Positions 635 through 1,410 of a DNA stretch of 22,753 nucleotides are shown here, one piece after another (position 1 is the stretch's first letter; each line of letters begins with the position of its first letter). The DNA lies in the IMG/VR virus record IMGVR_UViG_2526164651_000008, positions 1 through 22,753 of that record. One strand, given 5' to 3'. The notes under the pieces are model-generated. The model did no database searches. It had not been told where the DNA came from and worked only from the letters and a program-made list of their open reading frames with translations. This DNA is from a virus (Duplodnaviria > Heunggongvirae > Uroviricota > Caudoviricetes). The translations under genes and the position numbers were made by a program.

Positions 635-661
635 TTAACCCCTTGTAATTCATCGCCATAA

Positions 662-690
662 TTGATTTAATTCACAAATAAAACTATAAT
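662..690 (+). promoter_or_regulatory. Sigma70-like promoter motif (TTGATT-N17-TATAAT) directly upstream of the methyltransferase ORF
   Basis: TTGATT at 662-667, 17-nt spacer, perfect TATAAT at 685-690. The -10 abuts the annotated ATG at 691, so it is either unused or the gene starts at the second Met (ATG 703, preceded by GGTGA). Confidence 0.3.
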
Positions 691-1359
691 ATGGTGAAAT
701 TAATGAAAAAAAACACAGATGATGGGGCTAAAATTTACACACCACTTACCCTAAAGCTTTATGACTGGTGGGTTTTGGGAGTATCAAATCGGCTTGCATG
801 GGGATGTCCTACAAAGGAACACCTTCTTCCACACTTTCTGGAACATTTAGGTAACAACCATCTGGATATTGGTGTTGGAACTGGGTTTTACCTTACTCAC
901 GTACCTGAGAGTAGTCTGATATCTTTAATGGATTTGAACGAAGCTAGCCTGAACGCGGCATCTACAAGGGCTGGGGAATCAAAAATTAAACATAAAATTA
1001 GCCATGATGTTTTTGAACCTTATCCCGCGGCGTTACATGGTCAATTTGATTCCATTTCTATGTTTTACCTTCTTCACTGCCTGCCTGGAAATATATCTAC
1101 AAAAAGCTGTGTAATACGCAATGCGGCGCAGGCCTTAACTGATGATGGAACTCTATACGGAGCCACAATTCTTGGCGATGGAGTTGTGCACAATAGCTTC
1201 GGTCAAAAACTGATGCGCATTTACAATCAGAAAGGCATCTTTTCAAACACAAAAGATTCCGAAGAAGGCTTAACACATATACTCTCAGAGCATTTCGAGA
1301 ATGTTAAAACCAAGGTTCAAGGTACTGTAGTAATGTTTTCCGCTTCAGGGAAAAAATAG
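691..1359 (+). CDS. Class I SAM-dependent methyltransferase (Rossmann fold), function unknown; AT-rich cargo gene
   Basis: 222-aa ORF with motif I HLDIGVGTGFY (GxGxG) and a post-I acidic residue pattern (LISLMDLNE) typical of small Rossmann methyltransferases. No DNA-methyltransferase motifs (DPPY, PCQ) seen. The true start may be Met5 at 703. Confidence 0.7.
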   Translation: MVKLMKKNTDDGAKIYTPLTLKLYDWWVLGVSNRLAWGCPTKEHLLPHFLEHLGNNHLDIGVGTGFYLTHVPESSLISLMDLNEASLNAASTRAGESKIKHKISHDVFEPYPAALHGQFDSISMFYLLHCLPGNISTKSCVIRNAAQALTDDGTLYGATILGDGVVHNSFGQKLMRIYNQKGIFSNTKDSEEGLTHILSEHFENVKTKVQGTVVMFSASGKK

Positions 1360-1364
1360 CATCC

Positions 1365-1410
1365 AACCGCAGCACGTTCTTGCTTAAGACGTGCTACGGT
1401 TTCCTTTACG
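1365..1410 (+). terminator. Terminator-like hairpin downstream of the methyltransferase gene
   Basis: 13-bp stem AACCGCAGCACGT / ACGTGCTACGGTT (one mismatch), 11-nt loop, then a T-rich tract. The 5' arm CCAACCGCAGCACGT is also found in the hairpin at 313-327. Confidence 0.4.

Follow-up and report, generated by a model that had tools for sequence, protein, structure and literature searches.

A prophage-borne YbcY-type methyltransferase gene with a predicted promoter conserved across genera, beside an ipaH cassette

The stretch of DNA analysed here (the window) comprises 22,753 nt, corresponding to positions 1-22,753 of the virus record IMGVR_UViG_2526164651_000008, and all coordinates given below are window positions. 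Near its left end, between a divergent remnant of a tail-fibre-assembly (tfa) gene and ipaH, lies a gene for a predicted S-adenosylmethionine (SAM)-dependent methyltransferase, which is the subject of this work. By sequence comparison, the gene is an intact ortholog of ybcY, which we take to be the name of the frameshifted gene in the DLP12 prophage of E. coli K-12, and a member of the protein family PHROG 2132. A first-pass annotation of the same DNA had described a 222-aa, AT-rich Rossmann-fold methyltransferase with a classical GxGxG motif I, lacking an adjoining restriction or specificity partner and a MxiE box upstream, distinct from the effector methyltransferases of the NleE/OspZ type, and with its substrate left open. 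This description was borne out. The GC content of the gene is 40.8%, compared with 52.6% for the whole window and 51-53% for its surroundings, and neither a restriction nor a specificity gene adjoins it. The family is already catalogued, as K-12 ybcY, as PHROG 2132 and in RefSeq as "class I SAM-dependent methyltransferase", and the only unusual trait of the window copy is its neighbour.

The open reading frame (ORF) 691..1359, encoding the annotated 222-aa form, passed the Pfam gathering thresholds for Methyltransf_12, Methyltransf_23, Methyltransf_25 and Methyltransf_11, and a Pfam scan at E<=0.01 returned class I methyltransferase families only. Motif I reads DIGVGTG at residues 59-65 (numbered, as throughout, from ATG691), with the glycine-rich GVGTG at 61-65, and D59, G61, G63 and G65 were invariant in an alignment of 36 homologs sharing 56-99% identity. 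The acidic residue that ends strand β2 (motif II) is present, as is the seven-stranded sheet with its C-terminal antiparallel hairpin. An AlphaFold2 model of the protein (mean predicted local distance difference test score 89.5, predicted template modelling score 0.86) has seven strands in a single domain, and neither an extra domain nor a strongly hydrophobic segment was found in the 218-aa protein that begins at ATG703. As judged from these matches and from the model, the product is a class I Rossmann-fold SAM-dependent methyltransferase, predicted to bind SAM and to transfer its methyl group. An effector methyltransferase of the NleE/OspZ type was rejected on the grounds of the Rossmann-fold model, the exclusively class I Pfam matches and the lack of a MxiE box.

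The profile of PHROG 2132, a family with no assigned function, aligned over its entire length (1-218 of 218) with residues 5-222 at E=7.9e-157. The 36-homolog alignment revealed the family-specific motifs YDWWVLxxSNxxAWxC, YLLHCLPG, HN and YNxKGIFSNxxD, and the family-specific invariant residues Y16, Y24, D25, W26, W27, N33, W37, C39, H129, C130, H167, N168, Y178, N179, K181, N186 and D189, which are candidate acceptor-pocket positions; C39, H129, C130 and H167 may, moreover, form a metal site. No curated equivalog was found in NCBIfam, where only far sub-threshold matches to CpaM and RquA were obtained (17 bits against cutoffs of 175-180). Membership in a defence system was likewise rejected, since PADLOC gave only a sub-threshold match to mads_2 (E=0.003, 14 bits). 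The first-pass annotation had suggested a check for the YmfD family of e14-like prophages. YmfD is also a prophage-borne class I methyltransferase of about 220 aa with Methyltransf_12 and Methyltransf_23 matches, but it additionally matches the TehB family, and its gene, which forms an operon with ymfE, adjoins int rather than a tail-fibre-assembly gene; a BLASTP comparison with MG1655 YmfD gave E=14, i.e., no detectable similarity, and membership in that family was rejected in favour of the DLP12 YbcY family. In the literature searched, no functional data on ybcY were found, the gene turning up only in lists, and a search for SAM-dependent methyltransferases as morons of lambdoid phages returned nothing.

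The annotated start codon, ATG691, is not the conserved one. The alignment points instead to ATG703 as the true start, with a predicted product of 218 aa, because the methionine at ATG703 is invariant in all 36 homologs and an ATG at the 691 position is absent from the chromosomal homolog of Enterobacter hormaechei, in which the upstream DNA is recognisably homologous (…TTGATTTAATTCAC…GGTGAAATTAATG). Almost all homologs from outside E. coli begin at the position of ATG703, and the distance from the start to the YDWWV motif is 19 residues in nearly all of about 60 homolog loci examined. A Shine-Dalgarno-like GGTGA lies 5 nt before ATG703; GGTGAAATTAATG is kept in the Enterobacter chromosomal homologs, and in Salmonella, Buttiauxella and others its place is taken by the purine-rich sequences GAGAGA and GAGGGA. 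Directly behind the start codon stands a run of eight adenines, which could be a slippage-prone on/off site, and it is within this run that the 2-bp deletion of the K-12 copy falls.

In an alignment of upstream DNA from 11 lineages (the E. coli prophage, three Enterobacter, Citrobacter, Klebsiella, Yersinia, two Salmonella, Yokenella and Buttiauxella), conservation was confined to a TTG, a 17-nt spacer with TG-n at its end, and TTTAAT, the flanks having diverged. The pattern TTG-N17-TGnTTTAAT matched once in the window and never in 100 shuffles; of 99 homolog loci scanned, 31 contained exactly one copy of it and no further match, and at every locus with a checked gene start the methyltransferase began 30-35 nt downstream of its end. 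This conservation marks the element as a predicted sigma-70 promoter of the extended -10 type, from which, at the usual spacing, transcription would start at about position 678, giving a leader of about 25 nt that includes GGTGA.

The first-pass annotation had proposed a different promoter, a near-consensus TTGATT-N17-TATAAT that conflicted with the annotated start codon. The match itself exists, but the conflict arose from the wrong start and probably from the wrong register: the supposed -35, TTGATT (662-667), consists of the TG and the first -10 bases of the conserved element, and with this reading and ATG703 as the start the conflict is removed. TTGATT-N17-TATAAT was rejected as the main promoter, since its -10 is not conserved (the same register reads TGTTAC, AATAAC, TATTTA or AGTTCA in other genera) and since an mRNA started from it would lack the conserved Shine-Dalgarno sequence. 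It may serve as an additional promoter, overlapping the conserved element, that only the E. coli prophage alleles possess. Promoter-like matches as such were not enriched in the AT-rich stretch (3 found vs 3.9 ± 2.1 in shuffles).

In K-12, the match falls on the frameshifted DLP12 gene that is flanked by the tfaX and tfaD remnants, next to appY, ompT and envY. The K-12 gene (b0562, annotated as a putative SAM-dependent methyltransferase and pseudogene) shares about 98.6% nucleotide identity with the window over 760 bp, and the two loci have in common the divergent tfaX-type fragment, the promoter spacer and the hairpin boundary at the 3' side. They differ in the 2-bp deletion mentioned above, which causes the frameshift in K-12, in the sequence at 685-690, which is TATAAC rather than TATAAT in K-12, and in what lies downstream, tfaD in K-12 vs the ipaH cassette in the window. 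The ybcY/tfaX spacer of K-12 is listed in a genomic SELEX (systematic evolution of ligands by exponential enrichment) study, in agreement with the gene name used here, as bound in vitro by the RpoD holoenzyme and as containing a site for H-NS (Shimada, 2014; PMC3946193). The same study prints TTGATT-17-TATAAC for ybcY, its hexamers being predictions and the transcription start being unmapped (PMC3946193).

The distribution of the gene was assessed with the 771-bp region 640-1410 as the query at a threshold of >=95% identity. The region was present in 3838 of 5426 complete E. coli genomes (about 70%), with a median of one copy and a maximum of four, and the exact 222-aa and 218-aa proteins were each found on at least 1000 contigs. 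Full-length proteins of 99-100% identity occurred in 14 phage genome records, including ev243, 2G7b, the PhiR series (e.g., PhiR29), Kati and Turner, and the gene is intact in all 14. The gene order in ev243 is J, lom, tail fibre, two small ORFs, methyltransferase (on the opposite strand), tail-fibre-assembly ORF, hydrolase, ompT and int; the methyltransferase thus occupies the same cargo position as in the window, opposite to the tail-fibre genes and beside a tail-fibre-assembly ORF, with ompT and an alpha/beta hydrolase gene rather than ipaH as the neighbouring cargo. Truncated protein clusters (e.g., one of 161 aa with 445 sequences, and another of 30) are minor compared with the full-length cluster of 6589 members. 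The ratio of nonsynonymous to synonymous substitution rates (dN/dS) was 0.09-0.19 in comparisons with the Citrobacter (90% identical), Salmonella, Enterobacter and Klebsiella homologs. Taking together the dN/dS values, the intact phage copies and the prevalence, the gene is under purifying selection and to all appearances functional. Two contigs assigned to metagenome-assembled genomes of Bacillus and of Planococcaceae (loci L011 and L020) encode a 100% identical methyltransferase beside ompT- and appY-like genes and are almost certainly E. coli contamination.

Beyond E. coli, a family profile search of 1.84 billion cluster representatives yielded full-length matches to 416 clusters at E<1e-30 and 1748 at E<1e-3, and a scan of one genome per species found 527 encoded relatives; the best 80 of these 527 (>=50% identity) belong mostly to Enterobacterales, Pasteurellaceae, Pseudomonas, Xanthomonadales and Oxalobacteraceae. 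The annotation names of distant representatives were uninformative (e.g., "UbiE" or "class I SAM-dependent methyltransferase"). Copies with 67-90% identity reside on mobile elements, for example by DinI in Citrobacter freundii and by an integrase and a DUF4376 gene in Salmonella. Homologs outside prophages, with 56-68% identity, are lone chromosomal genes, as in E. hormaechei, where the gene follows a liv-like ABC operon, and in Yersinia; a Salmonella chromosomal homolog sits between a PMT_2 protein gene and cybB, ydcF and hrpA. Further lone chromosomal homologs were found in Pseudomonas, Proteus, Xanthomonadales and Pasteurellaceae; for the lone genes of Enterobacter, Salmonella, Yersinia and Pseudomonas, the range is 50-68% identity. 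Chromosomal settings of the kind that the first-pass annotation had associated with a housekeeping methyltransferase thus do occur, but the genes in them are accessory, not housekeeping, and the ORF disruption that it had also raised is found in K-12. In E. coli, Enterobacter, Klebsiella, Providencia and Morganella, the gene has a higher AT content than the DNA on either side, and in Proteus, Yersinia, Salmonella and Pseudomonas its GC content matches that of the host.

Clustering of 1195 adjoining proteins, from ORFs called in 89 loci of about 30 genera, revealed no neighbour family conserved across genera. Synteny was lineage-specific only, with DUF6388 and enoyl-CoA hydratase genes in the Pseudomonas syringae group and an IbrA/IbrB-like pair in Proteus, and guilt by association was rejected as a guide to function because this synteny is too narrow. 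In the P. syringae-group loci (L051, L057, L062, L071, L084 and L088, at about 5600-8600), a DUF6388 gene precedes the homolog at a distance of -3 to 9 nt, which suggests an operon, and an enoyl-CoA hydratase/isomerase gene and a CorA-like gene follow on the same strand. The enoyl-CoA hydratase context is a possible, lineage-restricted hint of a fatty-acyl-type substrate.

At its 3' side, the methyltransferase gene is followed by a terminator-like hairpin, and the block of homology shared with thousands of E. coli genomes ends at 1399-1402, which is the 3' end of this hairpin. A related hairpin after dinI lies outside the methyltransferase transcription unit. Positions 301-331 and 1350-1380 form a direct repeat (D1) with 81% identity. 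In a wider view, the two hairpins lie in a degenerate direct repeat of about 45 bp (301-355 and 1350-1405), 3' of dinI and of the methyltransferase gene, which holds the GC-rich hairpin CCGCAGCACG…CGTGCTGCGG followed by a T-run; a very similar hairpin stands 3' of dinI in the cargo-free RM9088 prophage (locus L093, 3700-3790). The repeat with its hairpin may be a shared terminator or a boundary for recombination between cargo cassettes. The 3' end of ybcY and the hairpin are also overlapped on the opposite strand by a RefSeq call of a 45-aa "nucleocapsid protein" (L001 4915-5052, minus strand; window about 1300-1440), which is repeated in K-12 and many other E. coli and looks spurious.

With its predicted promoter, one gene and terminator-like hairpin, the methyltransferase unit would be a self-contained moron, presumably expressed from the repressed prophage. 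The lambdoid morons, such as bor and lom of lambda and the effector morons of the Sp and CP-933 prophages, likewise have their own promoter, a single gene and a terminator-like hairpin, and share with this locus a deviant GC content, a location near the tail-fibre and attachment end and presence/absence polymorphism among related prophages; the GC deviation was noted above, and the polymorphism is seen in the RM9088 prophage, which is without the methyltransferase gene. There are two differences, namely that the lambdoid morons encode envelope or secreted products whereas YbcY is a predicted cytoplasmic enzyme, and that the same gene with the same promoter is also found on non-prophage chromosomal DNA in other genera. 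The positions of all features are collected in Table 1.

Table 1. Features of the methyltransferase locus and its neighbours (window positions)
Feature	Position	Strand	Remarks
DinI gene	1..249		Left of the methyltransferase gene
Hairpin after dinI, related to that at 1365..1401	315..352	+	-19 kcal/mol predicted, z=-3.7
Tail-fibre-assembly fragment, 89 aa	365..634	-	Equivalent to K-12 tfaX; divergent from the methyltransferase gene
Predicted -35 hexamer TTGTAA	643..648	+	TTG invariant in 11 lineages; fixed 17-nt spacing to the -10
TTGATT-N17-TATAAT of the first-pass annotation	662..690	+	10/12 consensus positions; ends one base before ATG691
Predicted extended -10 TGaTTTAAT	663..671	+	TG 663-664, TTTAAT 666-671; TG-n-TTTAAT invariant or nearly so in 11 lineages
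Shine-Dalgarno-like GGTGA	693..697	+	5 nt before ATG703
Methyltransferase coding sequence	703..1359	+	218 aa + stop; annotated 222-aa form from ATG691 in frame (691..1359)
A8 run	706-713	+	Directly after the start codon (ATG AAA AAA AAC)
Terminator-like hairpin, then TTTCCTTT	1365..1401	+	-18.4 kcal/mol predicted, z=-4.3
ipaH cassette	~1403-3497		AT-rich leader, MxiE box, ipaH, GC-rich tail
MxiE box GTATCGTTTTTTTACAG	1540..1556	+	Perfect; part of the ipaH cassette
ipaH (IpaH/NEL E3 ligase)	1675..3318		Right of the methyltransferase gene, 316 bp downstream; passes the NCBIfam IpaH_Shig cutoff

Among the neighbours, the 89-aa ORF matches Caudo_TAP with its residues 32-86 (profile 76-130 of 131, the C-terminal part only) and PHROG 2341 over its full length (E=8e-58). 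This fragment accompanies the methyltransferase gene in most E. coli prophages, and in most E. coli matches the homology block begins inside it, at about 387 or about 410. ORFs of 88-89 aa of this kind form a recurrent phage family (PHROG 2341), placed divergently upstream of the methyltransferase gene, and may be more than debris.

The ipaH cassette is bounded exactly by the methyltransferase hairpin and by the stop codon of a DUF4376 tail gene, at 3497, from which point homology to prophages of strains other than enteroinvasive E. coli (EIEC) resumes. The sole match to a MxiE box within 3 mismatches in the window is the one inside this cassette, and none lies upstream of the methyltransferase gene. 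A match across the junction between the methyltransferase gene and ipaH was obtained in about 9 of the 5426 E. coli genomes; those listed carry ipaH7.8 or ipaH9.8 on large plasmids and are therefore EIEC. In the related prophage of RM9088, DinI is followed after about 320 bp by the DUF4376 gene, with neither the methyltransferase gene nor ipaH in between, so the two genes are independent cargo insertions stacked at one hotspot. The first-pass annotation had drawn attention to the co-residence with ipaH; by these counts and the RM9088 prophage, the adjacency is a later coincidence and has no functional implication. In EIEC strain 201805972 (L002 11968-13451), the same prophage is degraded: IS1A has truncated its tail-tip gene, which adjoins a remnant of the terminase gene. 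In EIEC, the methyltransferase and ipaH genes are therefore fixed in a defective element, located next to btsS.

The substrate class was assessed by structural and profile comparison. The top Foldseek matches of the model were PmtA, JHAMT, PfPMT and SgvM, with PmtA (8ys9) first by a narrow margin (E=3.7e-11, template modelling score 0.61, 15% identity; profile E 0.065), and a profile search of the PDB ranked JHAMT best (E=1e-5), followed by UbiG (E=6e-4). The structural neighbours are all small-molecule or lipid methyltransferases, enzymes of natural-product pathways among them. Identity to JHAMT (7ec0), UbiG (4kdr), PmtA (8ys9), PfPMT (3uj7), MM_2633 (3dtn) and BelI (9fce) was 10-21%, the similarity being limited to the SAM-binding core at residues of about 41-163; the YbcY family motifs lie outside the regions matched by these solved relatives. 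In the alignment, the invariant Y16, Y24 and H129 are no more than candidates for a catalytic Tyr/His of the PmtA type.

We consider it probable that the gene is a moron for a cytoplasmic, single-domain methyltransferase of the small-molecule or lipid type that acts on a ubiquitous acceptor, the small-molecule or lipid class of substrate being in itself moderately likely. In this scheme, host sigma-70 RNA polymerase would transcribe the gene in the lysogen from TTGTAA-N17-TGaTTTAAT, probably damped by H-NS, and translation would begin at ATG703. With SAM as the donor, the enzyme would then methylate a small metabolite or lipid-like acceptor that every gammaproteobacterial cell contains, which fits a gene that stands without a partner, and the effect would be on host physiology, not on the virion, DNA or a eukaryotic target. 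Several observations weigh against this interpretation. The list of structural neighbours is flat, such that O-, N-, C- and S-methylation are indistinguishable. Binding by H-NS, as seen in K-12, points to a gene that is silenced under laboratory conditions. The frameshift in K-12 and the truncated forms indicate that loss of the gene is tolerated, and the hairpin at the 3' end has a weak U-tract and went uncalled in a simple terminator scan.

A universally conserved target would equally explain a lone gene without a partner if the enzyme methylated tRNA or rRNA. We judge this unlikely, as the protein has a near-neutral isoelectric point (6.9; 20 K+R vs 21 D+E), carries no extra RNA-binding domain in its 218 aa, and has its best profile and Foldseek matches among small-molecule and lipid enzymes. 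Its N-terminal lid, moreover, contains the invariant aromatics Y16, Y24, W26, W27 and W37; such aromatic-rich lids are typical of small-ligand pockets. The gene might also be a tolerated hitchhiker, silenced by H-NS and of no benefit, which persists by linkage to a recombination hotspot at the tail-fibre-assembly gene. The H-NS site in the K-12 promoter spacer, the deletion in the A8 run of K-12, the truncated protein clusters and the accompanying tail-fibre-assembly fragment are all consistent with such a history. The low dN/dS values, including that for the 90%-identical Citrobacter copy, the retention of the promoter across genera and the intact gene in 14 of 14 full-length phage records argue against it, and we regard it as distinctly unlikely.

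The two remaining alternatives are both highly improbable. The sole support for an effector of the type III secretion system, or a host-protein methyltransferase working with IpaH, is the position of the gene 316 bp upstream of ipaH; it is opposed by the missing MxiE box and the gene's own conserved, predicted sigma-70 promoter, by the 3838 E. coli genomes with the gene as against the handful with the ipaH junction, by the lone chromosomal homologs in Pseudomonas, Proteus, Xanthomonadales and Pasteurellaceae, and by a fold unlike that of NleE/OspZ. Phages often carry orphan DNA methyltransferases, and a role in anti-restriction or epigenetic marking could be imagined on that ground. The protein, however, contains none of the catalytic motifs of DNA methyltransferases that were looked for: there is no (D/N/S)PP(Y/F/W), no PP dipeptide and no PCQ, and a lone ENV at residue 203 has no C5 context. 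It is, furthermore, a single 218-aa domain with no target-recognition domain.

The preferred interpretation, a small-molecule or lipid-type methyltransferase acting in the host cytoplasm, can be extended to a more specific but speculative and improbable proposal, in which YbcY would be a lysogenic-conversion factor that methylates an abundant host metabolite of the lipid or fatty-acid type once H-NS silencing is relieved. By analogy with the structural neighbours, such substrates may include the phosphatidylethanolamine head group, as for PmtA, or the carboxylate of a fatty or isoprenoid acid, as for JHAMT.

As found, the gene matters little, being a catalogued and extremely common prophage gene. 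The analysis corrects its annotation, namely its predicted start at ATG703 (218 aa), its putative extended -10 promoter shared across genera, and its placement with YbcY rather than YmfD, and the locus provides a clean example of the stacking of two independent cargo cassettes in a single prophage, between dinI and its tail-fibre genes. The methyltransferase is, moreover, under purifying selection in most E. coli genomes, and the frameshift in the K-12 copy may explain why it has received so little study. If the lysogenic-conversion proposal were true, envelope properties, signalling or phage susceptibility would be altered in about 70% of E. coli strains, by an activity that would have been overlooked because the copy in laboratory K-12 is frameshifted.

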